DNA of 62,903 nucleotides, the filler included, from Jimgerdemannia flammicorona (Eukaryota): the NCBI GenBank assembly GCA_003990765.1. It is 2 parts of 2 records of this genome, joined end to end, with 100 filler letters (N's around TTAATTAATTAA, not from the genome) between each part and the next. Parts side by side here need not be neighbours in the genome. Positions count along the whole stretch, not along the records: positions 1 to 31,409 come from RBNJ01000402.1; 1 more part is not named here. One strand, 5' to 3'. Shown here piece after piece: positions 15,801 to 59,869 of the stretch. Position numbers and translations under genes: made by a program. Positions within the stretch are counted from its first letter, which is position 1, and every line of letters starts with the position of its first letter. The notes under the pieces are model-generated. The model saw nothing but the letters and a program-made list of their open reading frames with translations, did no database searches and had not been told where the DNA came from.

Positions 15801-18800
15801 TAGGAATGCCAGGAAGGAGACAGGGAAGGTGAAGGAGGTGAAGATTATTGACCCATATGCTGATGGCACCTTGGAGGTTTGGGATGAGGTCTGGGAGGAC
15901 TCTCCCACTCCTTCTCCTCTTATCAGGTAAGGCCTGGCTTCCAGAAATAAGATTGTGGAGGACATGACAATGCTGGAGACCCATCAGGTGAAATTCAGCA
16001 TTCCAGAGATAATGAATGGGGAATATGTGGTGGCAGCTAGAGAGGAGGAACTGGTGGATGTCCCAGAGGTATGGGATGAGGCTGCGAGTGCTGGAGCTGA
16101 CACCACAATACTGGATGGAGGGAGGCCGGTGATCCCTGGAGGGAAGAAGGTGGAAAACCTACTTTGGATGTGCAGGATGATGAATAACCTGGCAGCAGAA
16201 GAGTTGGGAGAGGTAGACTTACAAGTGATGGGTGATGAGCACTGGGTGCAGATATTGCAAGGGGATGGAGTGATGATGGCACTGAAGGTGGAAATTCTTG
16301 TGGTGTATCTGGAGGAGGAAGGGTATGAGGTGGACAAGGAGTGGGAGGCAGAGATAGCAGTTGTCACTGGGGAGAGGGCTGAGTACTGTTGGAACAAGCA
16401 TCATGGATTGTAGCTTTGGCAGGAGGCTTGTATTGAGTACCAGAAGGAGTTTGAGGAGAAGGTGGATGGGGAGATGAATGAGCTGTTGGCTGGATTAGAG
16501 GCTCAGAGGGTTGAAGAGGAGGAGGTGATGGTAGAACATAATTTGGACATAGCACAGGAGGAGATGAGCATGAAGCAGTAGAGATCGACTGATAACAAAT
16601 TGTATTTCATTATGAACAGTACAACCAACATTTTTTCTTTGAATGTGAATAGGCTATGGGGCACTGTTAGATGTAGGAATATTTTTATTTAGCTGAAGGG
16701 ATTGGAGGCCAATCTCTTCCTCTTGTAGGATGTCAGGTGTGAAGATGACTCTGATAAGATAGAATGGATAAAGAAATGGGGTAGTATAGCAATTTGGAAT
16801 GGCAAGGTTGGGATTCTGGTTTGGAAAGGCAGAGGGGAGATAAGAGATGTGAGGAGTTGGGAGAAGAGACTGGTCTGGAGTGAGTGGATTCATGTAGGCT
16901 GGGAGCTAGTCACAGTTGGCTCTTGTTACTGCCCTGCCATATGGGGGGAGTGTGTAGATTGGGTGAAGGGTCTCCAGGAGAGTGGGATCCTTGCAGAGGC
17001 TGGGGTGGATATGCTTGGGGGAGATTTCAATATAGTTTGGGATATACAGATGGATAGAACTGATGGAGGATGGGGTGCTGAGAGCAGAAGTGGGGGGCTG
17101 GTGATATGGGAGGAAGTTGAAAGACTAGGAGTACTGGTAGATACTGGTAGGGAGTACTGGGGAGATAGGAGGGTATATACGTATTGGGTTGGAGGCCTGG
17201 GGATAAGGATCAACTGGATTCTGATGGCCAATTGTTGGGGCCGAGATGTTTGGAAGTCACTGGAGGTGGAATGGTGTCTATGGTCAGATCACTGGGGCCT
17301 TTTGGGACAGGGGTGCTTTGGGGGAAGTGGGGATGGGCCTGGACATTGGTGCCTAAATTCCTCCCTGTTAGATGATGAGTCCTGATGGGAGGAGTAGACT
17401 AAAGACATTCAGCTGAGGGTAGAGAACTGGTGGCAGGAAGGTGCCTCGATTGGGGTTAGGTAGATGAGAATGAAAGAGATGGCCAGAATGTACTGGAGTG
17501 AGGCTGGCAAGGAGGCAGGGAAGCAGCAAAGGTAGAGAGTACATTGGGCTTCTACTAGATTGGCTAGACTTCTGGAGGAGTGGGTGAGACTGGCGATGGT
17601 GGAGAGAGAGGAAGATTGGAGATTAATGAGGGCAAAGATGGAGGTTGGGGAACTACAACTGATGCTGTAGGAAGAGGAGAAGGCAAGAGTGCAAAGCTTG
17701 GTAGCACAGCTCCATTGGCAGGGGCTGGAGGAAGGGGAGAGGCCTTCCAAGTTTCTCATGAGGATCCTTAGGGCAAGAAGGGTACAGCAATGGTGGGAAG
17801 GGGTACTTGACTCAGATGGTATTCTAGTGCATGGTGTACAGGATATTCTTAGATTGCTGAAGGAGCAATGGAGTGGATTGTGGAGTGAGGAGGAGGGTGG
17901 GGCAGATGCTACTGCCATTGACTGAACATTGGAGGATTGGCACCCACCACAAGTTGATGGACTAGGTGATCTAGTGATACTTGTAAAGGAGGATGAGATC
18001 CACCAGATTCTTGTTACGACAGCCTCAGGTACAGCACCTGGGGAGGATGGCCTACCCTGGGACTTCTGGAAGTGAATGGTTGGAGTCCCAGGTGTGATGG
18101 GAGAGTTGATGGCATTGTGTGACTTTATATTACAGATGGGGAGATGGGTGGAAGAGCAGGATCTTGGGCTGGTGATGCTGCTTTATAAGAACAAAGAAAG
18201 GTGAGAGGATTGGAAGAACTGGCGGCTGATAATGTTGCTAGATATGGACAGAAAGTTGGTGACTAAGATGGTGGTTGTGAGACTACAGAAGGTAGTCCAG
18301 CAAGTTGTAGGGGTTGAGTAGAGGGGATTTGTGGGTGGTTGGCTTATTAGAGATGGTACAGCCTGGGTACATGGAGTTATTGAAGAGGCTAGAGCCTGTG
18401 GACTGGATGGGTATCTAGTCTTCTTGGACCAGGAGAAGGCTTATGACCAGGTATGACGAGTCTGGCTGGGGAAAGTATTGGATAGAATGGGGGTTCCAAT
18501 CCAATTTTGGTCAGCAATAGTCAGCCTACTAGAAGGGAGTAGGGCTACACTCATGTATAATGGGCATAGAGGGGTAGCATTCTCTCTGGGTAGGGGGGTG
18601 CTCCAGGGGGACCCACTGTCCTCCATTTTGTATGCTCTTTCCCTGGAACCCCCTAATGGACAGAATTAGGTAGAGGATAGTGGGGCTCTCTATCTATGAC
18701 ATTAGGTAGAAAGTTGGGGCCTTTGCAGATGATATGGTGGTTAGTTTGGGATCAATTGCTGATGTCGAGGAGCTCAAGAAGACAGTAGAGTGGTATGAGG

Positions 18801-21159
18801 AGAACTCTAGGGCAAAGCCGAATTGGCACAAGTGTGAAATAATGGTACTAGGTAATGGCCTGGTGAGAGGAGAAGTTATAGGAACAATTGTCCCCACCAG
18901 TGAGGCAGTGTGGTACTTGGGCATCTACTTGTCAGTCTATGGGTCAGTTCTGCCCAGGCTTTGGTGGGAGCAGCAAATTGGAATTTGGGAGGAGGACCTG
19001 TGGGGTTGGGGGGGAAGACACTTTTCTCTGGCAGGATGGGTCTCAATTTTGAATATATATTGGCTGCCAAAGCTGTGGTATTTGGCATATCATCTGGACT
19101 TCCCAGCCTAGGTGGTGAAGAGATTGGTGAAGGTGGCCAAGAGATGGATTTGGGCTGACAGACAGAGTCAGATTGGTTGGTAGACCTTGTCTCTACCAGT
19201 GGCAAGAGGTGGTCTTAGGCTGGTGGACTTTCCCAAATGACTACACTGCTTGAGGACATGGTGGCTTAAGTGGGTGGTGGAGTTGCAAGGAGGGAGTTGA
19301 GTTTCCCTGCTACAGAAGGTCTGGGAGAGGCAGTTATCACCAAGAGGCTCAACTGGTGATCTCCTCTCATTGGTTGGACTTCAGAACACTGCACAATTGT
19401 GATATAAAGATTTCTGATAGGAGATAGCAGAGGGGGCACACTGCATTGATATTCGCTAGTAGGAGAATAAGGGGGAGGAGGCTTGGGACCTGGCAATGTG
19501 GAGATGGGATGGCATACTGCTGGGTGGCATGCCTTTACTTGAGTTCAACATTGGTAATGGAATAGAATACCAAAGGGGACCAGGTCAGGATCTGTAGCCT
19601 AGCAGTTGGCAAGGAGTTAGAATTGGAGAAGAGTAGAACTAGCATAGTATTTGAACCTGGAGTGCCACAGTGCAAAAATGGATGCTGCCAAAGTACTGGG
19701 TGGTCTGGTGGTGTATGCTGAGGAGGAATGTAATGCTCAACTTCCACTCAGGGCACCTTATCATAGGGGGTTGCTTCAACTGTGAGGAGTGCCATAAAGT
19801 TGGGCAGGAAGAGGGCTTTGTATAGATACCAGAATATTGGCTAGGAGAGTGTGAGGTATTGGGAGACTTTTGGCAGGCCATTGAGGACCACTTGTGGGTG
19901 AGATATAGGAGAGATGAAGTATGGGAGAGGTGGGAGGACTTGAGGGATTGATTGGTAGGAGGGGTAGAAAAGGAGTAGATTACCTTAGGCTGGGTGTTGG
20001 CTATTTGGGTTGGGCTGGCCAGTCACTGGCTATTTGTTTTTGAGGATGGGAGGTAACAGAGCTTGGGGAGCCAGTTATCACAGTAGCAGAGACTTATGGA
20101 AGATACCTTGACAGGCTGGTGGCTTGGTTGGGGGCTGCAGGGGGGTCAGAGGCGCCGCTTGGTGGAGAAAATCTGTGGACAGAGTGGGGGGAGAGTTGGA
20201 GTCATTGGTGAGAGGGTAATCTTTATTTGTGAAGAGGTGGAGAGGGGCTCCCCTATGGGGATCAAATAGTGGGTAGTGATATTGTATACTTATTTATAGA
20301 CTGGTAATAAAGATAGAGTCCAAGTAACTATAAAAAAAAAAAGGGGGTATCCTCCTAATTGATTTCAATATTGGTGATGGGTTAAGTACCAGAGAGAGTT
20401 AGGATAGAATCTATGGTCAAGTAGATGGTAGTTGACAGATATCAGAGAGAAGTGAGACTGGAATGAGGTCTGGGTCTGGAGTATTGAGGTAAGGTAGTGG
20501 CTGCCACTAAAGTACTGAGTAGTCTGGTGGCATATACTATAGAGAAATGTCATGCTCAACTTCTGCTCAGGCCACCTTATAGAAGGGAGAAGCTTTGACT
20601 GTGAGAAGTACCACAATATAGGGCAAGAAGGGGGATTTGTACAGATGCCAGAACTTTGGCTAGGAGAGTGCAAGGTACTTAGTAACTTTTGGCTAGCAGT
20701 TGGAGATTGATTGGGTATCATATAAAGGGGAGATAGTAAGTAGAGTCAGTAGGAGAATTTGAGGGATAGATTGGTGGAGGGGGTGAGAAAGGAGTGGCTT
20801 ACTATAGATTGGATATTGGTAGTTTGAGTGGGGCTAATAGGTCACTCATTGTTTATTTTTAAGAAAGAGAGGTATCTGGGTTTGGGGGTATAGCTATTGA
20901 GATGAGAAGAGTTGATAGAGGATGTTATAATAGACTGGTGGTTAGATTGGAGTGCAGGATGGTCAGAGGCATTGTTTGGTAGAGAAAATCTGTGGGCAGA
21001 GTAGAGAGAGTATTAGAGTAGTGAGTGATAAAGTTGCCTTTAAGTGTGAAGGTATGAGAGAGGGCTCTCCTATGGGGATTGAGTAGTGGGAGGAGATATT
21101 GTAACTATATCAATAGATTGGTAATAAATGGCAAAGTCCAAGTGACTATAAAAAAAAAA
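12885..21159 (+). mobile_element. Older 5'-truncated family A LINE (12885-14466 + 20344-21159) split by a nested full-length LINE
   Basis: RT motifs at 12.9-14.4 kb (DQKKAYD, GDPLSP, FAD). ORF2 resumes colinearly at 20344 and ends AATAAA..AGTCCAAGTGACTAT + poly(A) at 21150-21159. Confidence 0.88.
14469..20342 (+). mobile_element. Full-length family A LINE (ORF1 ~14556-16580, ORF2 ~16612-20270), decayed, nested with TSD
   Basis: Colinear with the reverse complement of 1-5714. Ends AGTCCAAGTAACTAT + poly(A). Flanked by GGAGTATCCTCCTAA (14452-14466) and GGGGTATCCTCCTAA (20344-20358). Confidence 0.95.
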
Positions 21160-24100: not shown

Positions 24101-26182
24101 CTAGTAGGTGAGGACCAGCAAGACTTTGTTAAAGAGAGGCAGATTAGAGATAGTACTGCCTGGGTACAGAATATCTTGGAGGGTTACAGAAGCTGGTGAG
24201 TGGATAGGCAGATGGTCTTCTTAGATAAAGAGAAAGTATATAATAGAGTATAGTGGAATTATCTAAAAGCAGTGCTACAGAAGGCAGAATTCAGTATAGT
24301 AGATACTAGAAGATTGATGGGTCTGATGTAAGGCTGCTGAGCAGCTATACTGATGAATGGATAGAGTGGTCCAGAGTTTGCCTTAGGGAGAAGAGTACCA
24401 TAGGGTGATCTTCTCTTCTTTCTACTCTATATTCTCTCCTTGGAGCCCTTACTGGCTTGGCTGAAGGGGTGGCTTACTGGATTGCAGATAGGAGATATGG
24501 TATAGAAGCTGAGGATAATAAAAAAAAAAAAAAAAAAAAAAAAAAATAGAAACTGAGGATGATATAGTGGTTGGGTTAGGCTATATAGTAGATGTTAAGA
24601 ATCTGCAGAAGGGAGTTGGACAATATGAGAGGCTGGTAGGAGTAAAACTAAACTGGAGCAAGTGTGAGGCAATGGAGCTAGGTACTGACTTGAGAGAGGA
24701 TGGGTATTTGGACAAACAGTGGCTGTGGGAAATACTATCTATTGTTTGAGCATCTGGTTCTCAGTTTATAAGACTATATTACCAAAAGAGTAGTAATGTG
24801 ATATGATTCAGAAGTAGGAGGGTATATTAACAGATTGGTCAGAGAGGTACTTCTTCTTGGTGAGGAGAGTAGTGGTTTTGAATGTATTCTGACTACCTAA
24901 GTTATGGTATTTGGGGTACTATCTGGATTTTTCTAGATGGGTGATACAGAGGCTGAAGAAGATGGTGAAAGGATGGTTATAGTAAAAGAGACAGCTGCAG
25001 ATTAGCTGGGAGACTGTGGTGTTAAGAATAATAGATAGAGGTCTGGAGTTAGTGGATTTCTGGAGGCAGTTGAAGGTACTCAGAGATTGGTTGGAGTATC
25101 AATTAATAGAGTTGAGAGAGGATAGTTGGAACAGACTAGCTATAGACAATTGGGAGGTCAGGTTCTACCCCTGTGGTGAGGACTTAAAGATTATATGAGG
25201 GTTGCTTTAGTTTGGAAGAGTTAGTAGATTATGGTTTAAGGAGTTTTGGTAGAGTATTATAGAGGCTTGGCTAGCTATAGAGTTGATAAGATCAGAGATG
25301 GGTGAGAGTGAAGATCTCAAGCAGCAATAGTGGTAGTTGGAGAGACTTCACATTAGTGGTCACTAGTTGGCAGAGTACTCTCTGTCTGAGGCAATGGAAT
25401 AGATCAGATCTGACTCTCTTGAAAAATAGTCTATAAATTGGCAGAAGGCTGGATTTAGGAATAACTGAGATTGGAGACAGGTCTGGAGCTATGGGGCTTC
25501 TTTACTTAAGGTGGTACTACTTAAGTATTGGGTGATATAGTGGAGATTCTTAAGGAGAAATATGATACTGAGCTACTAGACAGAATAAATAAAAGTAAAA
25601 AAAGGTTAGGAATAAGAGTAGTATAGTAAGGTAGATAGAGAAATAGTTCAGATACCAGAGTATATTCTAGCAGAATGTCAGAGTATAGAGGGGTATTGGC
25701 AGATATTAGAAGGATATTGGGGCTCTGAGGTTGGGTGGTCAGAGGATTCCACTAGTCTGGTAGTCAAGTAGTAGCTGGTAAGAGAGACTGGTGATATCTG
25801 AGATAAGCTGGACCAGATCCCTGCAGTCTGGGTCCTAATGACAGTATATTAGTGATAGGTGTTCAAGCAAGATCCATAGATGGAAATAGGCAAATTAGTA
25901 GAGCAGTGGAGGTGGTTTCTCAGAGAGATAGTACAAAGGTAGTAGTATTAAGAGAAGTAATATCAACTAGAGACCTTAAGGAAGATATGAGATATTGTAT
26001 AGAGGAGCTGAGATAACCTAGTACTAGATGACCAGAAGATGCAGTGGAAGAAAGGAGTTGGCTGAGGGGCCTTTGTCTATATATTATTTTTGTAGTAATT
26101 ATAATATAAGATTTGTTATTGTATTAAATTTAGATAATAAAGAAGTCTAAGAGACTATAAAAAAAAAATAAAAAAAAAAAAA
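21160..26182 (+). mobile_element. Second, divergent L1/Tx1-type LINE (family B), lacking the ORF1 5' part, heavily decayed
   Basis: ORF1 remnant (VRYLRxDL..). ORF2 starts ~22402 (MMNSLYILLLNINSL) with KDFN, RIDWIL, SDYW, DKEKVYN, VPxGD and PKLWY. Ends AATAAA..AGTCTAAGAGACTAT + poly(A). Confidence 0.9.
24502..24564 (+). mobile_element. Poly(A)-only insertion with TSD inside the family B RT region
   Basis: ATAGAAGCTGAGGATAATA (24502-24520) and ATAGAAACTGAGGATGATA (24546-24564) flank an A-run. Confidence 0.72.
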
Positions 26183-26432
26183 ATCTGGGTTCTAATGATA
26201 GTACATTAGTACTAGATGTTTAAGCAAGATCTATAGATGGAAATAGGTGAGTTGGTTGAGTGGTAGAGATGGCTTCTCTGGGAGGTAATATAAAGATAGT
26301 GATATCAGAAAAAGCAATATTAGCTAAGAGCCTTAAGGAAGGTATAGGACATTGTACAGAGGAGCTGTGATAACCTAGTGCTAGATGACCAGAGAGTGTG
26401 GTGGAAGGAGGGAGTTGGCTGAGGGCTTCTAT
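26183..26432 (+). mobile_element. Additional family B LINE 3'-end fragment
   Basis: Homologous to ~25827-26075 (TCTGGGT.CTAATGA.AGTA.ATTAGT..CAAGCAAGATC.ATAGATGGAAATAGG..GATAACCTAGT.CTAGATGACCAG). Confidence 0.8.
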
Positions 26433-26438
26433 CAGGAT

Positions 26439-27060
26439 ATGGTATTATATGATATAAATTACAAGTATGCTTGTAATATATACATTAATCAGAAATACAA
26501 TCAGAGGACTGCTTTACTCATCGCCGGTCCTGTGATTCAGCATGACATTAAGATTTTAATTATGTCATCACAGCCAAGCCACCAAAAAAGATTTTTCTAT
26601 TGCCAAGGTATCTTGCGACTGTCAATATCTGTAAGAGTCTTGGCAACTGCCAATACACTGTAGGGAATCGTCTGGTTGCCTTGAGGTTATAGAACAGATG
26701 AAAGCAAGTACCTGGGGAAATACACCAGTAACTGAGGTGAAAGCTAGTACTTGATGCGGAAAGTAGGTGAGTAAACCTTCTTTCAAGAAACTATCTTATG
26801 CAGGGTGAATACAGTGTAGACCACTAAACACCAAAGTAAGGCTTTATTTTTTATTTGTTTTCAATACTTTATTAAAACTCTCTTACTCTTACTTACAAAT
26901 CTTTTGACCAATTCCTTATATCAGTCTTGGTTGCTTTTTAAGCCAACTGATGAGCCCCTTGAGCAAGGGCGAAACTGGTCTAGATCATAGTTACACTAGT
27001 TACACCTCATAGCTATGTAATAACACACAACTTTGGAATAAAAATATTATATTAAAAACA
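26439..27060 (+). mobile_element. Possible Penelope-like element 3' remnant (GIY-YIG-like ORF end, T-rich UTR, hammerhead, AATAAA)
   Basis: MVLYDINYKYACNIYINQ resembles VYxIxC..C..YIGQ if G>A decay is reversed, followed by VRVLATAN..LEVIEQM. Downstream hammerhead and AATAAA follow the PLE pLTR layout. Confidence 0.4.
26921..26978 (+). ncRNA. Type III hammerhead ribozyme
   Basis: Stem III UCAGU/ACUGG, cleavage triplet GUC (C17=26926), stem I UUGGUU/AGCCAA, core CUGAUGA (26947-26953), stem II GCCCCUU-GAGC-AAGGGC, core GAAA (26971-26974). Confidence 0.85.
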
Positions 27061-27486
27061 TGGAAATATGATAAAGTGTGAAAAGGGGAACGGAAAGGTT
27101 GCATCCTGCATATGTCACATATCCTGTCCACATGGTCACTTTTGGGGAGCTGAATCTGAGCTATAGCTCACTTCTGAACCTACTTCTCCCTCCTAACATA
27201 CTGCCTAACCTAATCTCTCTGCTCTTCCCACCTCTGAGCTCTTCCCACACCTATGCCTCAACCACAGGCACAGGCTGCAAGATCTACTGACTCACCAGGG
27301 ATTGAGATACCCTACAATGGCAATAACTGGCAGGAGACACTGCAATTGCCAATCCGGACTGCACGAGAACATAATTCTGGTGGAGGGGTATGACAGGTAC
27401 CAACATACAGATACGTAGTACTAGACTGGGGTCTGTTCGGCTGCTGGAGAGATGAAGGGGTTTACCAGAATGGGCAAAGAGGTTGG

Positions 27487-28820
27487 GGCAGATGCTTGTT
27501 TTCTTTGGTAAGCATGAAAATTCATTATTTGTATACAAACAAACTCACTCTTGCATATCACCTACTGGTTTTCAATTGCTTTTGTTTTCCATTGCTTTCC
27601 TCTCAGACTCAATTTTCAGAATTGTTATAATCCATTCTTTATCTATCTCAGGCTTAGGTAGACAGTCTATAATGACATTAACATCTTAGACACTAGGATA
27701 ACACCTATGAAATTGGTCACTGGCTTCTGCCAAAACTCTTCCTTATTTGACAATTTAGTCTTCAGCAACCCCGCTCTCAACACCTCAAATACCAACACTT
27801 CAACTCCCAACACCACTTTTGACAATTCTCCTGGTACCCTCAATATGTTCACCATAGTTGGTGGTATCGGCGGCTTGATTGGCATCTCTATCAGCATTTG
27901 GTTGTTGCTATCATCTCCATCTTTCTCATCATTTGCAGACCATGGCGAAAAGACTCTATGCCAGATAACCTGCCGCCCGCTATCCACGGGAGTCAGGTTC
28001 AAATGGTGGATTCATACACCACCCACAAAGGACAGGCTCTGGCATACTGTCGGTTCAATCATTGCCATTCGATTATTATGAGTAGCTTGGTGGGGGGAGT
28101 ACACCAACTATCAAACTCAATTAGCAGGTCCGTACAGCACCCCTGCGAGTTCCCTTATGCTACCGAGCCAGGCCGGGTACGCCAATCAGCAAATCGCACC
28201 AGTGGTTCCATACAGAACTTGTCCCATTGTGCCACCGGCTCAGCCACTGCAACATGGTTCCGATGGGTACAATAATCAGCAAATACAACTAGCTGCTCCA
28301 TACAGCATCTTAGCAAGTCCCGGTTTGTCATCACTATAGTATGGTTACAGCATCGAGCCTGGTGGGTATGATAATCAGAAAATCCACCTCAGCAAGTCCC
28401 GTTATGTCGTCGCTGCAGTACATTCACGGTATTAAGCCCAGTCAGCCTGAATACAACAATAATGTCTCTCCCGTCGGTACCGGAGACCATCTGTTCAGTT
28501 TTGATCAAGTCTGTCCCAACAACAAACCTGATAATATGGCACCAAGGGGGGAGAATGGCTACTTTAACCCTGAACTCAGATCTCCGCCGCATGAGATTGA
28601 ACAGATGACAGAGCCAAGAAATGGCTACCCTATCCCTGAATACAGAGCTCCGCCACATGAGGTTGAACTGATAAAAATGGCTATTGAAATGTACCTAATG
28701 ATGAATTACGGTCTACAAATGACACAGATGAGGAATAGCTATCGTGATGTACCTAATGATGAATTATCGCCGCTGGACGAGATTGATATGGAAACTGTGA
28801 GACTCTTGACTAATTATTAG
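27487..28820 (+). pseudogene. 3' part of a kelch-repeat single-pass membrane protein gene, frameshifted
   Basis: GQMLVFFG, then an intron (GTAAGC at 27508), then YNDINILDT, a Ser/Thr/Asn linker, a TM segment (IVGGIGGLIGISISI) and a P/Q/Y-rich tail with peptide repeats split over several frames. Confidence 0.55.
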
Positions 28821-31409: not shown

Positions 31410-31509
31410 NNNNNNNNNNNNNNNNNNNNNNNNNNNNNNNNNNNNNNNNNNNNTTAATTAATTAANNNNNNNNNNNNNNNNNNNNNNNNNNNNNNNNNNN
31501 NNNNNNNNN
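31410..31509. other. Artificial scaffold linker (44 N + TTAATTAATTAA + 44 N)
   Basis: Exactly 100 bp with a palindromic six-frame stop 12-mer at 31454-31465. Confidence 0.95.
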
Positions 31510-31651
31510 AGAGAGAGATACTCTGGAGATCTGAGATATAGAGGTGAGATAGGCTTCTCTTAGGTGACTCATTGGTGGTAGAATTCAACATCAGTACTAA
31601 TATAAAGTATTAGCAAGATGTGAGATAGGATTTATAATCTATAGACTAATA

Positions 31652-33266
31652 CAGTGATGAGCAAAAGGATAACAATGTTTTGAAAATTTTACTTTTATAA
31701 ATAATATCTCTATAAATAATTAATATAATGAAATGTAACTTATATTTTCCAAAAGCTCTTGCTTTTCTTTATCATTGGTTAAAATATCATTTTGATACCA
31801 TTATTATTTAGCTTGCTATAAATTTTTACATTAATACTATATATTATTATTCTTTTGGTTTTTCCACTGCCATTTTTGCTATTTTAATATTTCACATAAC
31901 CTCCTTTGGCCTTGTACACAGCAGCAATGCATCTTGGCATGCTCTCAATTAGGTCAATATATTTTTCGGTCGATATGCCTTCCCATTTATGCTCTATATA
32001 TTCCCAAAGCTCTTGCATTCCTTTGGGTGATTCATCATACACATTGAGCAGTTGTTTGAGATGTCTCTAAAGATGTTCAATTGGATTAAGATCAGGAGAC
32101 TGTGCTGGCTAATCTAGCAAACAGATGGAATTGTTCTTGAACCAGTTGTGTGCCATCTTCGATGTATGTTTTGGATCATTATCTTATTGAAATATCACCT
32201 TCTTTTTGTCTATTCTAAAGAATTTAATAGATTCCTTTAATTTATCTTCAAGGATTTCTATATATAGCTCCAAATTCATACACCCATCGATTCTGCATAT
32301 ATATTCAATACTATAGTAACTCATACATCCCCAAATCATAATCGATCCACTATCAAATTTTAATGTCAGAGTTACATGATATTGCTCAAGCTGTGCCCCA
32401 GGCCTCTTCCATGCCCATTCTCATCTATCTGACCCCAAACAGTTGACTTTTGTTTTGTCCAAGAATATCACCCATTTCCAGTCATCTATGGTCCAGTCCT
32501 TGTATTTTTGTGCAAATTCATACCATGATTTGATATGGTGTAGCAACAATAACAGCTTTTTCTGCTTCATGAATGACTTCAAACCAGTACCTTTTAATGT
32601 TCAATGTACTGTGGTTGTACTCACACTGGCTTGGCCCTCTTCTTGAAGTATTTTTGTGATATTTGCAGTAATTTCAACCTTGCCACTGGACACCTGGTGG
32701 ACAATCCATGATCTATCTTGAGTAGATAACTTTGGTGGACAACTGCCTTTTGATATATTTGCATCATCACAATACTCATTTCAGATATGGCTAATCAAAG
32801 TAATGCTTATGCTGATTGCTTTGGCAATCTTTTTTGCTAACTGTCCAGAATTTAACCTATTGATGATAGTGTCATGAATCTCAATAGATAGCTTCTGCAT
32901 TTTGTATAAGAAATGAATATTGGTATGAATTTTTACACCATTTTTACACCAAGAATGACATCAAGAATGATACCAAGAATGATGCTATATATTGCAGCTG
33001 TATAAAAGGTTGAGCGGGTTATGTGAAATATTAAAATAGCAAAAATGGCAGTGGAAAAGCCAAAAGGGTAACAATATATAGTATTAATATAAAAATTTAT
33101 TGCAAGCTAAATAATAATGGTATCAAAATGATATTTTAACCAATGGTAAAGAAAAGCAAGAGCTTTTGGAAAATGTAAGTTACATTTCATTATATTAATT
33201 ATTTATAGAGATATTATTTATAAAAGTAAAATTTTCAAAACATTGTTACCCTTTTGCTCACCACTG
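31652..33266 (-). mobile_element. Tc1/mariner DNA transposon, complete, 1615 bp
   Basis: TA|CAGTG...CACTG|TA ends. TIRs of 250 bp (31652-31901 and 33017-33266) with 10 mismatches. Internal transposase. Confidence 0.97.
31884..32900 (-). pseudogene. Tc1-family DD34E transposase with in-frame stops and no frameshift
   Basis: 339 codons: MQKLSIEIH..WTIDDWKWVIFLDKTK..IMIWGCM..FQ*DNDPKHTSK..PAQSPDLNPIEHL..SMPRCIAAVYKAKGGYVKY*. Confidence 0.95.
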
Positions 33267-34317
33267 TAGTTAGCCAGTATTGGTGAGAAGTAGAATTGAG
33301 CTAAAATCTGTCCTGGAGTACTGAGTTATAGTGATGACTTTCTCTGAAGTTTTAGATAGTATAATAGTATTTTTTAAGGAGAAATATTATATTGAACTTT
33401 AGGTCTAAATATTTAGTAGAGAATGAGATCTTTAAGTATAAAGAATATTTCAGTATAAATAGAAGAGAGAAGTAGTATAAATTCTAAAACATTGGTTGAG
33501 AGAGTATGAGATACTTAATGTCTTCTGAGAGTTATCTTCAGATATGGTATCAGAAAGATGAGGGTAAAAGAAGATGTGATGACCTGAGAGTGAGGCTAAT
33601 AGAGAGTATTGATAATTAGTAACTTATAATTGAATAGATATTGGTAATATGAGTGAGGTTGGCTAGATACTGATAATATATACTTGAGAATAGGTAGTGA
33701 ATATTATTAGAAGAGAGGGTAGCAAGGTAAAAGAAGTTAATAGTGGATATTCTATCTAGTTAGTAGAGGGATGAGATTCTCAGAAGAGTTACTATAGATG
33801 ACTAGTGGAAGAAATATATGAGAGAAGTAGTGAGAGGATTGCAGTAATTTATGACTTAGTAGTATTTCAGAGAAAGAGAGTGAAAGAGTAGGTAAGTATT
33901 GAGATAAGGTAGGGAAGAGTTGAGATATAGTTACTGATATAGTATGAAAACTATATATATATTATAGATTAGTTAATAAAGGAGTCTAGCACTTAATGAG
34001 AAAAAAAAAAAAAAAAAGACTAAAGAAAAGATATGAAAATATACATACTATAACTAAAAAATTATTATAGTTGAGTTCATCTTAAGTTCCACTTTAGTCT
34101 TCTCTATATTCATATCATTACTGTTAAAAATTCTATATCTCCTTACTATAAAGATCTAATTACACATCTATCACTATATTATAATTATTATAAGAAATAT
34201 TACAACTGATCCAACTCATAGAGATATATCAACAATAGCTCTAAGTTCATATAAGATAGAAGTCAGAAGCAATAGATGCTCATCTGAATCTACAAGAAGA
34301 ACAGAGTTACCTTCCAT

Positions 34318-43893: not shown

Positions 43894-45003
43894 TTAGTTC
43901 TTCTTTTTCTCTTTCTCCTTCACGATTAGGTGCGCCTGCTGCATCTCAACTTCCTTCCATGTCCTTCCCTTACCAACGTCTTCCGCAACTTTCGACCACA
44001 ATTCCCGCGTCTCTTTTGACCGTGCTTTAATAGCCTTAGTGAGTTTTTCGTTTTCCTCCACCGTCCAGTCCCGGCGTGGGGGCAAGGTCTTGGCCTGCAT
44101 TGACTGCCAATGCAGGTAGCATCCCGATCGATCACGCGTCGGAAGGTATTTTCTGGCAATGGCTTGCCAGCCCAACCCTTCAGCGAAACCCTTCTTGAGC
44201 AAAACTTCCTCCTCCTCCGTCCACTTGACTTTTGGCCGTTTCTTGGTCTTGGTCGGCGCCTCGGGCGGAGTCAGGAGTTCAGGGGAAGTTGGAGGAGGAG
44301 AGGCCAGTGACGCGGAAGAGGTGTCACCTTGTATTAACTTTGGTTTTTTGAGCTTGTTAGCCGAGTCAATCCCACAATCTTCTGTGGCATCGTCGTCGTG
44401 CGATCTGTCAACGACGGCCACGGTGCTTGATGATGGGACTTGATTGTCTGGTATGGCTTCATCGATGTCCGGGTGTGATTTCCGTTTGGTACTGGCTGTG
44501 GTATGCTCGGCTGAAATATGGTTGTCGTGGGCGGTAGCATCAACATCAGGTTTCCGTTTGGTTTGATTTACGCGAGGAATTTGATGGTCGTATGTGGCGT
44601 CCGGGGTGTCAGGCTTCCACACCCTCTGAGGCATTTTGATGGTGTTGTCCTGGGTTGAAGTTGAGTCCATGTGAATAATAATCTCAGGGTTCAAGAGCTT
44701 TGCAATCGCGGGAGGAACGTCGCGCTCGAACACCTCTACCGTGAATGAGGGTCTGGGTGGGCCTTCGGCATCGTGCGACTTGTATCCGATCCCGATTTCA
44801 GGATTGAGGGACATGCGTTCCGAATTGTGGTCGGCAGCATCGCATGAATCATTTTCATCTTGTCTGTAGGCTTTTGAGTTTGAATACCATGCCATTCCAT
44901 CCTTGGCGGTGCTTGTGTGGATCATCGATATGTGGGGCTTTGCAGTGTACAATCTCAGATTGAAGTGGTGGATTGAGTCAAGTTCGGGATAGACTGTGGC
45001 CAT
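43894..45003 (-). CDS. Myb/SANT-repeat protein, intronless
   Basis: ATG at 45003 (MATVYPELD). Two C-terminal repeats, KWTEEEEVLL..GWQAIARKYLPTRDRSGCYLHW and WTVEENEKL..WSKVAEDVGKGRTWKEV, plus basic NLS-like clusters. Confidence 0.82.
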   Translation of the reverse strand: MATVYPELDSIHHFNLRLYTAKPHISMIHTSTAKDGMAWYSNSKAYRQDENDSCDAADHNSERMSLNPEIGIGYKSHDAEGPPRPSFTVEVFERDVPPAIAKLLNPEIIIHMDSTSTQDNTIKMPQRVWKPDTPDATYDHQIPRVNQTKRKPDVDATAHDNHISAEHTTASTKRKSHPDIDEAIPDNQVPSSSTVAVVDRSHDDDATEDCGIDSANKLKKPKLIQGDTSSASLASPPPTSPELLTPPEAPTKTKKRPKVKWTEEEEVLLKKGFAEGLGWQAIARKYLPTRDRSGCYLHWQSMQAKTLPPRRDWTVEENEKLTKAIKARSKETRELWSKVAEDVGKGRTWKEVEMQQAHLIVKEKEKKKN

Positions 45004-47401
45004 TTTATATAAACTCGAGTGGCAACGAGTAAGGGAGCGTCGACTGCTACACAAAGAGATCAGGAAGAGGCTGGGGAGAGGAGGAGGAGGGCACGGCAGA
45101 GTGCTTGCAAGGCGTTTCGACGCGGCTAGCTATCCTACAAGGAGTGAAGAGTCGGAAATGAATCCATAAAAGATTGTTTCCATACAAGGGTAATAACCGG
45201 TATGCACGAGGGAGGAATGCAATATGGTCTTTTCGTTTTTGGTGGGCTCCGGAAGTCACGTCGATGACGGCCATCCACACAAGGGCATCCTTTTCATGAT
45301 TATTAGACGTTGTTCTTGTCATACCTAGACAGCAAGGAAGGTGGGAAAAATCAATTGAAACGCTGAATTGACGACTGCCAGGCCGTCGATTGGCCTTTCA
45401 CCCACTGCCGTAGACCTTCCATATGCTAGACGGAAAAAAAAAAAACATTTGTAGACAACGAAACAGGGGTGATGTTTAAGTGTTCTTGTTTGTATGATCT
45501 TCATTATCTCCATGCCACAACAGTAATTATTAGTTATGAGATGATGGGTCGACAATTCGAAATCGAAAATGGCTCAAGCAAACTACCCTTGCTGGCTTCC
45601 AGACACACAATGAGCCAAAATCAGCACACGGATTTCGTTGGTATTGCGAATGGCTCAGCACGCTCTTTTCCCTCCTTTCGGTAGAAACTCATCCTTTGAC
45701 TATGCCATTGCATTGTCGTCTCTGTCCCCGACTATTTTTCATATTCGAATCGCGAAATGAAAACAAACCTTAACGCAAATTTAGTGAGGGCCGGCGCATC
45801 GAAGGAGTTGCCTTCCGGCCTTTATCTTTTCGTTGTTTTCGGCAGGGCAAAATCACAGTTCACTTGCAAAACAGTGCGATTGGGACCCTTGCAACACATA
45901 CTCGTGCGAATCAAGGGCTGCGAATCTTCGCACGCGTAAGCGAAGGTTTATTAGGGGCCTAAATGAGAAGTATTTCTCCACTCAATACGAACTTAGTAAC
46001 ACGCGGCGATCTTTCTAAAATAAATAAATAATAATATATATATATATATAATATAAAAAATAAAAATCACCGGAATTCAACCTCTCACAGCCTGTAGCTG
46101 TTGAGGAAGAGGATAAACCTTTCGCTATATTAACACATCTTCAACTGACTGGTAGCGAATTTGTCGAGCCTTCTACCTTATTTAAAGAGAACAATGGCGC
46201 TACGGATAATTACATGTCGCACATTCGAATTTTTGATCGGTCGATCAATTCTTCCAGCAGGGTATATATGAAAATAGGGTACACATGAAATCAAAACCCA
46301 AATAGTTCGCATTAACCGTTCTTAGACTGTATAGAGACGTCGATGACTCCTATTTCAACATTAAAATAGTGCATGTTGAAAAGCAACACAACCTGACTCG
46401 GACGTGGCTCAAAATACGTGATTGAGGAGATCAACAAGGTCATCGTATTTTAGCTCATCGCGCAATCCGTTGGGCATGATCCCCAGCAGACCGACATGAG
46501 CACCCGCGTCGCTCCGCCCACCCGAGCGTTGGGGTCAAATGCGGTTGCATCGGCTATTACTCAAATAGGAGACTTCTCTTTGTTGATTTTGGAATTCAGA
46601 ATTGTCGCTCAAATGAAATCTCAACGCATTCAGTCCGTACACAACGGTTGTACCTTATCCTCTCCTGGAAACAGAAACATTGAACTTTGAAATAAAACAA
46701 TGCTTTACATTCCGTTGCAAGAGCAGATCAATAAGCGTGAAAAATATTTCGGTTGTGTGCGTCGTGCCATGTGAATGTTCGGCAATTCCAACGAGATGGT
46801 GTGTGTAAGTGGTGGTCTGGATAACAGAGATAGAAGAAAGGCCAAAGACCCTAATCCGAAACAAGTGGCTCGAAAATGACATCATTCGATGTAGAGAACA
46901 AAGCGTTGCTGCATTGGACGCCACCAAGCAAGATCCTCCGAGTGGTGTTTGTGTCCATTCTGTATACTATGATGGCCCCAAATCCCGCAAGCTTCACTAC
47001 CTTTCGGAAACCACAAGATGCAGGCCAACAAGCACCTGTCTCCTATATTGCCCCTTTCGCGGTCACGCTGTCAAACATCTAGGCGGAGTGATATGTTATC
47101 CAGATTTATAATGATCGAGTAGCCTGTGCTCAAGAATTGTCGAAATCGGAACGGCTAATCGCATGGACGTGCACAAGTAGAGGAATCGAAGGACTCCCCC
47201 CCCCCCCAAAAAAAAGGTAACAAATTTGCAAATTATCACTTTCTTTTTTTTTTTTAAAAAAAAAAAGGGAGCAAAAATATAAATATAAGATACAATATCT
47301 TGGAATCACATGTGTGTAGTGTTATACACGGTTTACGTCATCTCTCCTTGACGTTCAGAGGTATACCAGTGCTCTATACGTTATGGTGTCATCTATATCT
47401 T

Positions 47402-49366
47402 TTAAGGGAAATCACAAACAATGGAAGTCCCGCTGGTCTTGCACACAGTGCTAGGCCCGCAGTTGTTCGTGGACCAACTACTATTCACGCACTGCTTGTA
47501 CGCGGTGGACGAACCAGAGGAGACGCAGATCATCTGACCGTTGTTGGAACTACCGCAAGCGGGTTTGTCGGTCGGGCCACTTCCAGCAGCAGAGGTCGTG
47601 CTGGTAGTGGTCTTGACCCTCGAGGATCTAATTTTGATGGCGGAAGGGGGTGTGGTTTTGACGACGGAAGAGGATGTGGTTTTGACGGTGGAAGTCGTGG
47701 CCTTGCCGGCGGAAGCGGAATTCGTGGTCTTGGATGGCTTGGCTGTACCAGTTGGGTTCACTCCTGCTGAGCAGGTAGCCTGCGGGGCGGGGTCGAAGAT
47801 ACCCTGGATAGCTGGCAAAAGTTCGCCATTGTCCTGCGAGATCTCCCACACCATGGCACCGAGAACGTCACTGCAGCGGAGGTAATCGACCTTGTACTTG
47901 AGAGAGCGTGGATCGTCGTACGAAAGGTAGACGTTCTTGTCTGCCCTCCACAGCCAGTTAGTGTAAGTACTGGCGTCCCAGTGCTGTTGCCACGGGGAGG
48001 CAGCCTTGGTGGTGGAAGTCAAGACGCCTTCCGAACGCAAGTTCTTCCACTTCCAGACGCCCGAGTAGTGTTTGTAAGCGGGGCCGTCACAGGAATCGGG
48101 GTCCAAGGCGTCGTCGCTGTCGCCAATGGGCGGATTGTTCTGGACTTGGCCAACGTACTGGTCGTTGTTGGCAAGGCTGGCCATCGATGAGGTGGTCGTC
48201 GTTGAACGGGCATAGAAAGGCAGACCCATTACAAGCTTATTAGCAGGGACGCCGAGCTTGATCCAGCGCTCGACGGCCTCGATCAAGCCGAACTTGAAAG
48301 AGGCCTGAGTGTTAGCACCGGGAGCGGTAAGTGGAGCGTTGGGGCCAGTGAAGGTGTTCCAAGGGCCGGAGAAATCGTACGACATGACATTCACCCAGTC
48401 AAGGGCGTCCGCTAGGCCATCCATGGTGCACTGCTGCACGGCCCACTGGGCCGAGAGGTCGCGGCAGTTCCAGATCGCCTGCTTGATACCACCGAGATGT
48501 GCCGCGATGGTGATCTTGACCTTGGAGCCAAGCGTGCTCTTGAGCTTGGAGAGTAGCGAGACGTAGTTGGCATAGTCGGCAGAGGAGGTGTGCGTGCAGG
48601 TCTGGGAGGAATCGGGGATACCAGGGTGCTCCCAACTAAATAATGATGAAATTTTGTAAGCGCAGATCACATTCCCAAAATCAAGATGTCGACCACCATT
48701 ATTTATGAATTTTTCGATACTTACTCAATATCAATACCATCCAATTTATAGGTATTCACCAACTTCTGCACAGCGGCGATGAACTGCTCGCGCTTGCCTC
48801 CAGAGCCGGTATCTGCGGCCATGTCAGAGAAGAAAGTAGACCCGGCCCAACCGCCGATAGATAGGAACACTTTATTTTTTTTTTTATTTTATTTTTTTTA
48901 TAACCAAAAGCAAAGAGATGTCAGCATTGGTACCAGTCTTAATTGGATGTATCAATTTTTCAAAACTCATTAAGAATCTGTACCTTTGGTATCAGCGCCG
49001 TGAGCAGCGGTCACAAGAGCCTGAAGCTTGGGTCCGGGTGTGAGGCTGAGGTTGGTACCGTTGTTGCCGAGGTCGAAGCGGGGAAGATGATCTTGGCGTA
49101 GAGTGGCGAAAGCTGTAGAATAAAAAGGTGAGGAGATTTAGTAAATGATTTTGTTTTGGTAGGGTTCGAAAGGAGGTAAGGTCTAGCGTACCGTAGTTGA
49201 CGTGAGTGACTTGGCCGAAGGGGATCTTAGCCGGCTCCATGCTGGTCCAATCTGCGTAATAGATCTGGAGGACCTTGCCATCGGAGCCAACGGCCCTCGC
49301 GGATGCGGAACCGAGTAGGCCAAGGGTGGCCAGAGAGAGAGCGCCCAGTTGAATGATGTTCTTCAT
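47402..49366 (-). CDS. Secreted GH18 chitinase with Ser/Thr linker and C-terminal Cys-rich CBM19-like module (exons 49366-49192, 49112-48984, 48869-48725, 48635-47402)
   Basis: Signal peptide, YYADW, THVNYAFA, SIGGW, spliced catalytic LDGIDIDWEHP (DxxDxDxE), MSYDF, KLVMGLPFY, SYDD, GAMVWE. Three GT-AG introns. Confidence 0.95.
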
Positions 49367-57393: not shown

Positions 57394-57700
57394 CTCTTTC
57401 TTTCTTGATTCTTTACATATCATTTATCTACCATTTCATGCTTGTTGGCTCGCTCACTACATCACTCCTCATAACGTAAAATACTTGTTTTGTTGGGGTT
57501 CAAAAGAGGCGTGTGGCTGCTAGGACGGAATAGAGACGTTTCAGAACGCCACTACGCCCAACCATCATCCAGTAACTCATTCGTCATGGCTACGTCTGTC
57601 CTCTGTCTCAGCCCCACCAGCTATATAAACCATCCTTGCCTTCTCACTCAAACATCAACCCACCCCCTACCCATATACTTCACCAAGACTATCAATTAAA

Positions 57701-59869
57701 ATGCTCCACAAGCACATCGACGCTGAATCTTTCATGGATGCGACCCGCCGTGAGGAACGCCGCGGGAGCGTTCGCGGAAACCCGGGAGTGCACTCCATGG
57801 CCTATGGGTCGCGCTACGCCACCGCTGAGATCCCAAAGTACCATCTACCTGAAAAATCGTCGTCGTCGCAGGTCGCATATCAGCTCGTTCACGACGAACT
57901 GGAGATGGATGGGAGGCCGGCCATGAACCTCGCCTCGTTCGGTACGTGTTTCTTTATGTTCGTTTGCATTAATAATGGTTGCTTCAGGTGGTGGAGCTGG
58001 TGAATTCAACCTTAACCTCCTCTCCATCCACAAACCCGTCGTCCTCAGTTCACACCTGGATGGAGCCCGAGGCCGACCGCCTGATTATGGAAAACATCAA
58101 TAAGAATCTCTCGGACCAGGACGAGTACCCAGCTACGATGCGGATCCATTCGTGGTGTGTCTCCATCCTGGCCAATTTGTGGAAGGCGCCCACTCAGGGC
58201 AACAAGAGCGTCGGCACCGCTACCGCCGGCTCGTCGGAGGCCGTCATGCTAGGTGGCCTAGCCATGAAGAAAATGTGGCAGGCGAAGAGGAAAAGGGAGG
58301 GCAAGGATGCCTCGAAGCCGAACATTGTGTTCGGGAATAACGCGCAGGTGGGTGGGGCCACAAGATGGTTACTTTCTTTTTCTATGGTACCACATGGCGA
58401 GCTGCCACCATATTCATAAACTCTTTAACCTCACAGGTTGCTCTCGAGAAATTCGCTCGCTACTTTGATGTTGAGGCGCGCCTGGTCCCCGTGACTGCCT
58501 CTTCGCGGTACTGCCTGGACGTGAAGCGGGCCATTACCTTGGTGGACGAGAACACGATCGGCGTGTACCTGATCCTGGGCTCAACGTACACGGGCCACTT
58601 TGAGGACGTGGAGGGGATGGCGAAGGAGCTGGATCGTCTGCAGGAGGAGCGCGGACTCGATGTGCCTATCCATGTCGATGCCGCAAGCGGTGGGTTCGTC
58701 GCACCCTTTGCGTTTCCCGATTACAAGTGGTCGTTCGAGATACCCAGGGTTGTGTCTATTAATTCGTCAGGGCATAAGTTTGGGCTGACGTATGCTGTGA
58801 GTTTTTTTTTTTTTTTTCACAGTTGTTCGTATCTTCAGCGGACGGCGCGCGTTGCTAAATGAACCTCTCTTCCCACTATAGGGTATTGGCTGGATCCTCT
58901 GGCGCAGCGAATCGCACCTCCCCAAAGAACTCATCTTCGAGCTCCACTACCTTGGCGGCACGGAGCAAACTTATACGCTCAATTTTTCGCGCCCCGCGTG
59001 CTTCATGATTGCGCAGTATTACAACTTTGTGCGTCTGGGTGCAGAGGGGTACCGGTCAATCATGGAGAACGACTTGCTGAACGCACGACTACTGTCGCAC
59101 GCGCTCGAGAAGAGCGGCTACTACGACGTCCTGAGCGACGTCCACAGGCCCAAGGGGGTCACCTTCGCGGGCAAGAATGAACAGGGGAAGAAGCCTAAGG
59201 GAGACGGCAAGGCTGCCGACTATAATGCTAGCTTGCCCGTCGTGACGTTCAGACTGAACGAGGAGTTTAGGAAGGAGAATCCACATGTCAAGCAGGCAGC
59301 TGTCAGTGGGCTGTTGAGGACGAGGGGATGGATTGTGCCGAGTAAGTACCTTTCTGGTGAGGTTCCTAGCAAAGGTAGTTTGGTTTGCTGCAGCGCAAGC
59401 TAACGACTGCATGTGATTAAATTCTATCAGATTACAATCTTCCACCCGATTGCGCCGAAACCGATATCCTTCGCGTTGTGGTAATTCAACATTTCTAGAC
59501 CTTTCCTCCTATTTTCTATTGTGCATCCACTCTCTCACCCTAAACTCTTTCACCACCATCAGGTTCGCGAAAGCATGTCGGAGGACCTCATCGACCGCCT
59601 CGGTAAATCTCCTCATCCCCTAAACCAAACCTCACTATCCCCCTTTGTCCACATCGATCTAACCCAAATCTTTTCCCCACTCTCCAAAAATAAAAAAAAA
59701 TAAAAAAATAAATAAATACACAGCTTCCGACATCTTCTGGGTGACCGAGACACTCATGAACAGCGAGTCCATCGACTCGGCCATCTTCAGCCAGACCGCC
59801 GGCAGCTTGCCAGAGTCGAAGCTTCAGGAGGAGTCAGTGAAGACTAACACTTACGCCAGGCAGTGCTAA
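57701..59869 (+). CDS. gad: Glutamate decarboxylase, PLP-dependent (exons 57701-57941, 58049-58347, 58437-58796, 58882-59341, 59431-59480, 59563-59602, 59724-59869)
   Basis: DGRPAMNLASFVHTWMEPE, DEYPA, GSSEAVMLGGLA, EKFARYFDVE, LGSTYTG, HVDAASGGF, SINSSGHK (PLP lysine), YLGG..LNFSRP, GWIVPNY, ILRVVVRE. Confidence 0.97.

Follow-up and report, generated by a model that had tools for sequence, protein, structure and literature searches.

A hammerhead-like motif in the genome of Jimgerdemannia flammicorona raised the question of whether it is a genuine ribozyme and what kind of element it belongs to. The motif lies at 26919-26980 of a stretch of 62,903 nt (the window, meaning the whole stretch of DNA analysed), of which positions 1-31409 are a single contig of a 231-Mb assembly of 35,354 contigs. 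It had been predicted to be an intact type III hammerhead among transposable-element (TE) debris, and such debris was found around it in the form of reverse transcriptase (RT) domains at 1087-1812 and 18710-19111. Sequence comparison showed a ribozyme family with a covarying loop-loop contact (kiss) and, upstream of the cut, an enrichment of splice-donor-like and branch-point-like words, a shortage of AG and a hairpin that pairs with the ribozyme.

The hammerhead and its family

The Rfam model Hammerhead_3 (RF00008) matched 26919-26980 over the full model with 42.5 bits (E-values of 6.2e-7 for 6 kb and 6.5e-6 for the whole window), the sole strong Rfam match in the window. The score is below the gathering score of 48.5, which is a curation threshold and not a biological feature. 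The conserved core elements CUGANGA, GAAA and NUH were all present, and the GUC, CUGAUGA, GAAA and three helices named in the original prediction were each found in the sequence; helix III, given there as UCAGU/ACUGG, extends by one further A-U pair. The parts of the ribozyme are:

26919..26980, plus strand: type III hammerhead ribozyme, from the RF00008 match and family covariation, predicted cut after C26926
26920-26925/26974-26979, plus strand: helix III, read in the sequence
26924-26926, plus strand: GUC, predicted cut site after C26926
26927-26932/26941-26946, plus strand: helix I, with an 8-nt loop
26933..26935, plus strand: loop I triplet GCU of the kiss, with triplets covarying as GCU/AGC, ACU/AGU and GCC/GGC
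26947-26953, plus strand: CUGAUGA core, read in the sequence
26954-26960/26965-26970, plus strand: helix II, with C26958 bulged and a GAGC loop
26962..26964, plus strand: loop II triplet AGC, kiss partner, from covariation
26971-26974, plus strand: GAAA core, read in the sequence

The bare pattern CTGANGAN{3,30}GAAA gave 4 matches against 5.9 expected, i.e., not above chance, so that the evidence is the covariance-model match together with the family. A DNA search of the genome returned 242 candidates, 40 of which were scored. With RF00008, 37 matches at an E-value of up to 0.001 were obtained, none above 48.5 bits (best copy 47.4 bits), and 14 control genomes gave no match. Two sequence patterns had 165 and 174 exact matches and their reversed controls none; counted by sequence, the family size is at least 174 copies.

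The sample comprised 98 distinct copies with an intact core, 90 of them with at least 150 nt upstream and falling into 32 groups of dissimilar upstream sequence. Covariation was counted in 41 of the 70 distinct ribozyme sequences, chosen for diversity, and excluded helix II, where the alignment slips. Of the 492 cells in helices I and III and the loop I-loop II kiss, 95.5% were paired, with 44 double changes; none of 500 shuffles reached the pairing or the double-change value, and slid controls were 9-48% paired. The kiss triplet cells were paired to 94.3%. Such pseudoknots have been described for every type of hammerhead, and Yarrowia lipolytica is reported to have hammerheads associated with repeats (PMC3088659; here and below, statements from the literature reflect the available part of each cited source). 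We conclude that the window motif is almost certainly a genuine hammerhead of a selected family, for which self-cleavage after C26926 is predicted from the sequence.

A type I reading had been said to fail. In the window copy, TAGATC indeed pairs with AGCCAA at only 3 of 6 positions, but a second GUC after GAAAC-NN is found in 34 of the 98 copies, and helix I pairing reaches 4-5 of 6 in relatives, which leaves the second GUC as a weak type I alternative. As had been stated for Penelope-like elements (PLEs), whose hammerheads were said to be mostly type I, the published PLE hammerheads, fungal ones included, are of type I (PMC4209133). The claim of an unusual topology for a fungal retroelement stands as far as a type III hammerhead does occur in a fungal repeat; the retroelement carrier found no support.

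A metagenome scan yielded 38 loci. On the family model, the closest outside relatives (L132:381-438, L147:617-674 and L158:971-1028; 35-37% GC) reached 67-69 bits. Each of them has GCAAG some 75 nt ahead of the cut and CAG some 10 nt ahead of it, and in L132 and L147 there are in addition upstream repeats resembling broken ribozyme halves. A dispersed element of about 495 bp with a type III hammerhead and fixed ends (about -260 to +235 around the cut) occupies about 18 loci (L133, L138-L140, L143-L146, L148, L153, L154, L156, L157, L159, L162-L165, L168) on eukaryote-like contigs; it is without TG..CA ends, and no TE domain was found among the flanking open reading frames (ORFs) scanned. Phage- or bacterium-like contigs (L134, L141/L142/L166/L167/L169, L152, L155) hold several type III kissing-loop hammerheads between ORFs, and L152 reached 61 bits on the fungal family model.

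Splice-like signals and a lock hairpin upstream of the ribozyme

In families with unrelated flanks, a donor-like word occurs 44-136 nt before the cut and is followed by a branch-point-like word. Donors were scored by their match to the complement of the 5' end of the genome's own U1 small nuclear RNA (snRNA), which starts ATACTTACCTG, ignoring the first intron base and with a threshold of at least 8/10. It was found that 13 of 32 groups reached this threshold, compared with 2.4 in random flanks (maximum of 7 in 500 draws). The first bases in the passing groups were AT in five, TT in five and CT, GC and GT in one each, so that 11 of 13 have no G. Counted over the 90 copies, 52 donors passed, 47 without G (35 AT, 7 TT, 5 CT) and 5 with G; many of the ATAAGT copies keep their CpGs intact. 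Host introns read in the window begin with GT.

The branch word CT[AGC]AC was present in 13 of 32 groups versus 4.1 in random flanks and 6.5 in dinucleotide shuffles (2 of 500 as high), and donor and branch in this order in 6 of 32 groups, with 0.3-0.4 expected. Between branch and cut, AG was absent from 37 of 52 copies, where 22 were expected (maximum of 31 in 300). For an intron ending at the ribozyme, as in PLEs, this is a mixed picture, with donor and branch enriched and the acceptor mostly absent.

Just past the branch lies the arm of a lock hairpin, which pairs with the GUC and with helix III on its 5' strand; from family to family, the arm and helix III change together. For the 24 of 32 groups that fold on their own, the predicted probability of helix III was 0.08 with the native upstream sequence, compared with 0.34 for shuffled sequence and 0.40 for a random flank. 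According to these folding calculations, the lock hairpin should hold the ribozyme off. Identity within the largest family is 88% for the branch-plus-lock segment and 56% for the exon. AT-rich hexamers after the ribozyme were found in 14 of 30 groups, with 7.8 expected and 3 of 500 controls as high. For the window copy, the corresponding features are:

26484..26835, plus strand: upstream block of family-1 copies, from alignments, covered by contigs of runs X1 and X2
26543-26550 and 26563-26570, plus strand: decayed TGACGTCA-like sites in the upstream block
26836..26841, plus strand: splice-donor-like GTAAGG, from alignment with sister copies reading AAAG/ATAAGTAAG, 5 nt lost here
26890..26896, plus strand: branch-point-like TACTTAC with putative branch A 26895, corresponding to TACTCAC/TACTAAC at -31/-32 in sister families
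26906..26911, plus strand: decayed lock arm GACCAA (GACCGG in relatives), from sequence and folding controls
26922..26924, plus strand: CAG in helix III, where most copies read CGG; in this subfamily it may be the acceptor of a GT-AG intron of 89 nt (26836-26924)
27017..27060, plus strand: AT-rich patch with AATAAA (27037-27042), possible 3'-end signal

The upstream block, part of which has 17 genomic matches, contains a non-coding 'exon' of about 250 nt. A step-2-blocking-type donor (AUAAGU class) with a branch point is present in the main families and absent from the window copy, in whose subfamily a canonical GT donor is exposed because 5 nt were lost, the AG of the possible CAG acceptor having been created by decay. 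Contigs of runs X1 and X2, both guessed to be RNA, cover the ribozyme, the exon and the downstream block (on 26300-28700) with mostly undecayed letters. A single X2 contig connects 26835 with 26925, that is, exactly the predicted donor at 26836 and the CAG inside helix III; the excluded part ends GT..AG, and the letters between are not known. This one contig suggests that the spliceosome can use these signals, as a full splice. Such contigs do not reveal where RNAs end, and their depths, being sums over many contigs, are no measure of expression.

The best reading of the sequences is a cassette consisting of a non-coding exon, a U1-binding donor mostly without its first G, a branch point, a lock, a type III hammerhead and an AT-rich patch. 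C or U at the first intron base stops splicing ahead of its second step, as A does. In Aspergillus telomerase RNA, an AUAAGU donor blocks this step, and an A to G change restores splicing (PMC4299874); Prp16 binds RNA 3' of the branch point (PMC7935899). In the mechanism that we propose, RNA polymerase II would transcribe the unit and the spliceosome would perform the first step only, freeing a capped exon that ends in a 3'-OH, as happens in fungal telomerase RNA. Until spliceosomal helicases acting just 3' of the branch point open it, the lock would keep the ribozyme off; the ribozyme would then cut about 30 nt past the branch, so that a small lariat is released from the 3' tail. In the window copy, the cassette would have drifted to an ordinary GT-AG intron, the removal of which would delete helix III. 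That the exon is freed by step-1-only splicing, and that the lock delays the ribozyme until this stretch has been remodelled by the spliceosome, is a real possibility which we hold somewhat short of probable. The full statement, a natural spliceosome-gated ribozyme in which 3' ends arise by the first step only at non-G donors and a locked hammerhead in the place of the acceptor cuts the lariat free, is offered tentatively and is rather doubtful.

Several results weigh against this mechanism. In a hold-out of 20 unseen copies, the donor reached 8 in 9 of the 14 that resemble known groups, all without G, and in none of the 6 new groups; one new group has GTGAGT, a lock and a CTAAC nearer than the search window. 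The lock was weaker in the hold-out (0.24 versus 0.42, with 9 of 14 below 0.1). Of the original groups, 19 of 32 were under the donor threshold, the window copy included (score 7), and 3 of 16 outside loci also reached 8, all three phage- or bacterium-like. The motif windows were set after the data had been seen, the groups share ancestry, and the copies were picked for an intact core. Donor and branch regions are able to pair with each other and so might both be RNA stems, and some lock pairing is to be expected because CCGG is palindromic. An Sm-like site before the donor was present in only 1 of 51 copies, and TGACGTCA sites were without enrichment across groups. The sole joint, from one contig of a run guessed to be RNA and with the letters between not known, represents complete splicing rather than step 1.

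That joint is what would be expected if the ribozyme lay in or just after an ordinary, fully spliced intron, where it would tune neighbouring host genes and where the non-G donors would be decay or bulged GT/GC registers. AG/TTAAGT and AG/CTAAGT can presumably be read as GT or GC donors with a bulge, and the three AT-rich metagenome relatives have GCAAG..CAG just before the ribozyme; intronic hammerheads are also known in amniotes (PMC3088659). We give this explanation a low probability: ATAAGT is found in 35 of the 52 donor-bearing copies, many of them CpG-intact, as against 5 G donors, and G>A decay cannot give T or C as the first base. Furthermore, most copies have no AG after the branch, and the ORFs nearby are unrelated host genes at no fixed position. 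AT-AC introns are a known intron class; an AT-AC reading of the cassette was rejected, AC not being kept across families.

Upstream of the donor, TGACGTCA sites are found near -380 in the largest family, and the same sites occur upstream of two of the three U1 genes. These three U1 snRNA genes (L190-L192) have in common the upstream words ATCCCAT and CGCCACC and a TATA-like box, which are candidate snRNA promoter elements. The stretch 100-350 nt before the donor of the largest family (L090-L100, L069, L107) holds TGACGTCA, a T-run and GGTTCAAA, followed by a GTTCGAG..CTCGAAC-type stem around a highly variable interior; we take GGTTCAAA to resemble a Pol III B-box. No published account of such a cassette was found in a literature search that had supplements and most subscription journals outside its scope.

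Other candidates for the exon were rejected. Rfam in 18 loci gave only the hammerhead and there was no match in E. coli genomes, so the exon was not identified as a known RNA or rRNA fragment; a comparison with viral contigs gave one chance match. As to intron-less retrocopies, all 6 exact exon-end matches run on into the intron-like part. The variable exon interiors, considered as captured guides, had no match elsewhere among the loci compared, the rest of the genome being outside this search.

Carrier, copy boundaries and spread

The sequence that family-1 copies have in common extends some 400-460 nt upstream and 145 to 4,800 nt downstream. Two further features of the window define their surroundings:

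27061..28547, plus strand: downstream block, present in most family-1 copies to about 27416-27490 and beyond that only in L004/L005
25089..26425, plus strand: decayed repeat with a poly(A) run at about 26158-26182, LINE-like by context

A broken frame from 27662 in the downstream block encodes a fragment of a Ser/Thr-rich, single-pass membrane-protein-like protein. The downstream ORF of a relative had a best score of 0.79 in the ESM Atlas, which is uninformative, and the 4.8-kb downstream block of three copies gave no Pfam match and few full-length matches.

A retroelement carrier, as originally proposed, was not borne out. Pfam revealed no RT among 68 and 107 ORFs near ribozyme copies, although decayed or intron-split ORFs could escape; found instead were assorted host domains, one weak zinc knuckle and one retroviral protease. 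Integrase domains lie 1.8-2.8 kb upstream of one copy, outside its shared block. By eye, no long terminal repeat (LTR) ends, TG..CA, poly(A) tail or target duplication were present at the ends of 21 family-1 copies, and the ends were ragged. The copies are mostly dispersed with few head-to-tail units, and a plant-type LTR retrozyme layout (two 300-400 bp LTRs with a ribozyme each, 600-1000 bp apart) was not encountered. Motifs of tRNA primer-binding sites (PBS), from an incomplete list, were found within 700 nt in 3 of 90 copies.

One locus (L220) duplicates the cassette together with 1.4 kb of the upstream repeat (88% identity over 25089-26723), and another (L219) has window 28178-28445 immediately before 26501. 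A circular contig (L026; G000:C31841, 1-1279) consists of a 1152-bp unit with one ribozyme, and in two dispersed copies its far end is found upstream of the ribozyme. The order in this unit is ribozyme, AT-rich patch, T-run, several TGACG sites, exon, AAAAG/ATAAGT, branch point and lock. Among the 98 copies, two intact ribozymes on the same strand were found in 2 loci only, 1993 and 4319 bp apart, a count limited by the fragmented assembly; the shortest contigs encountered measured little more than 1 kb, so the assembly may lack short tandem units. Ragged ends and shared flanks point, as far as sequence comparison goes, to DNA-level duplication with a few head-to-tail units. In L011, L013, L016 and L017, a second, broken donor-branch-ribozyme module lies about 130-230 nt upstream of the intact ribozyme, which suggests module shuffling.

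These units are also compatible with a retrozyme-like selfish RNA, of which head-to-tail units would be cut to monomers, circularised and reverse-transcribed by a helper; the donor and branch words would be stems of the circle or leftovers, and the lock would stop the circle from cutting itself. This explanation accounts for the circular unit and its dispersed relatives, the junction in L219 and the two same-strand pairs, as well as for a ribozyme that is retained amid rapidly diverging interiors. Plant retrozymes are of type III (PMC4918200), and the separate 495-bp metagenome element with fixed ends is a cleaner retrozyme-like candidate than the J. flammicorona family. We nevertheless consider it rather unlikely. 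Loci with two intact ribozymes number only two, LTR ends, target duplication and poly(A) are lacking, PBS-like motifs are rare, and the near-perfect U1 complement with A, T or C as first base and the avoidance of AG are left unexplained. None of the 10 contig joints listed was a backward joint, which contigs cannot exclude.

The same repeats might be relics of PLE pseudo-LTRs, comprising promoter, retained intron and ribozyme, moved by an autonomous PLE not seen here. In Drosophila virilis, the intron of Penelope ends in helix I of the ribozyme (PMC4209133), PLEs occur as partial tandems (PMC11167929), and the 34 copies with palindromic GAAAC-NN-GUC resemble dimer-type type I motifs. This origin appears improbable, given that published PLE ribozymes are type I and that no RT was found beside any copy examined, by a search without a PLE-specific RT query that does not imply genome-wide absence. 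Ten GIY-YIG loci resemble stand-alone homing endonucleases, and no ribozyme was found in the 9 that were scanned with the family model; a GIY-YIG link was accordingly rejected. Several GIY-YIG homing-endonuclease-like ORFs per contig were seen on the mitochondrial-like contigs G000:C509, C6559, C1998 and C17552 (L080-L089), those on C509 being about 4 kb apart. Both the retrozyme and the PLE origin can coexist with the cassette. A preference for divergent host promoters was dropped as a weak signal.

Decay of the window copy and relation to known systems

G>A and C>T changes make up 104 of the 122 differences between the window copy and two close relatives, and 79 of these lie at CpG, in line with the apparent C>T changes noted originally. 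The same note held that the copy may still cleave because these changes leave G-U pairs. The core is intact, but this is doubtful, since G>A/C>T decay turned the 5' strand into UAUCAGU, which is complementary to ACUGAUG of the core, and 26919-26925 is predicted to form a 7-bp helix with the catalytic CUGAUG. This misfold is the best of the predicted folds, with the hammerhead 3.4-4.1 kcal/mol above it in a model that has tertiary contacts, the kiss and magnesium outside its scope; helix III has a predicted probability of 0.02, where the family median is 0.97, with 13 of 98 copies faring worse. Because tertiary contacts and magnesium lie outside the folding model, some residual cleavage activity is possible. 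On the best reading of these folds, the window copy would be an ageing member whose lock arm has decayed and whose ribozyme is prone to misfold.

The family resembles RF00008 type III hammerheads, pseudoknotted forms included (PMC3088659), in topology, core and loop I-loop II pairing, and phage- and bacterium-like contigs carry very similar motifs; it differs in scoring under the gathering score and in its upstream donor, branch point and lock, which were not found in the available part of that account. With plant LTR retrozymes (PMC4918200) it shares a type III ribozyme in a non-coding, heterogeneous, multi-copy repeat, but paired 300-400 bp LTRs, a 4-bp target duplication and a PBS were not found, and it has ragged ends and splice-like signals. 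Metazoan non-LTR retrozymes (PMC7229834) are likewise non-coding head-to-tail units with one ribozyme each, as in L026; those are type I with units of 150-450 bp, whereas here the ribozyme is type III and mostly dispersed, and the unit is 1152 bp where seen. As in PLE pseudo-LTRs (PMC4209133, PMC8557442, PMC11167929), where splicing alters the ribozyme fold, a possible intron end adjoins the hammerhead; unlike there, the type is III and not I, and no RT or GIY-YIG ORF is attached. The AUAAGU donor with a branch point is an arrangement that stops after step 1 in fungal telomerase RNA (PMC4299874; PMC4993307), from which the family differs in its many copies, unrelated exons, lack of an Sm site, additional T/C first bases and a ribozyme in the acceptor place.

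Elsewhere in the window, a Myb-domain protein (43894-45129), a GH18 chitinase (47402-48724), a glutamate decarboxylase (57700-59750) and a GT49 glycosyltransferase (60157-61077) are encoded; the chitinase, beyond the 31410 gap, is 69% identical to an Endogone protein, followed by Jimgerdemannia and Umbelopsis, which makes an Endogonales-like member of the Mucoromycota the most likely host. At 31410-31509, two runs of 44 N flank the linker-like TTAATTAATTAA, different contigs being joined here. A 252-nt inverted repeat (31650-31901 and 33017-33268; 96% complementary, 1115 nt apart) is possibly a young terminal-inverted-repeat element.

The ribozyme alone is a modest addition, i.e., a type III hammerhead family in a fungal nuclear genome. 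What is new are the family-wide statistics for the non-G donor, the missing acceptor and the lock, which concern the main families only. Spliceosomal cleavage has been described for fungal telomerase RNAs, and a computational hunt for other substrates was reported to be hampered (PMC4299874). If the proposed mechanism is true, the cassettes would represent many capped non-coding RNAs or a new kind of selfish RNA, spliceosomal cleavage would extend beyond telomerase RNA, and two RNA catalysts would be coupled. The dozens of copies that combine a non-G donor and a branch point with a locked ribozyme, and have no acceptor, would then lend themselves directly to use as test substrates, and they would offer a natural case of splicing control of a ribozyme.
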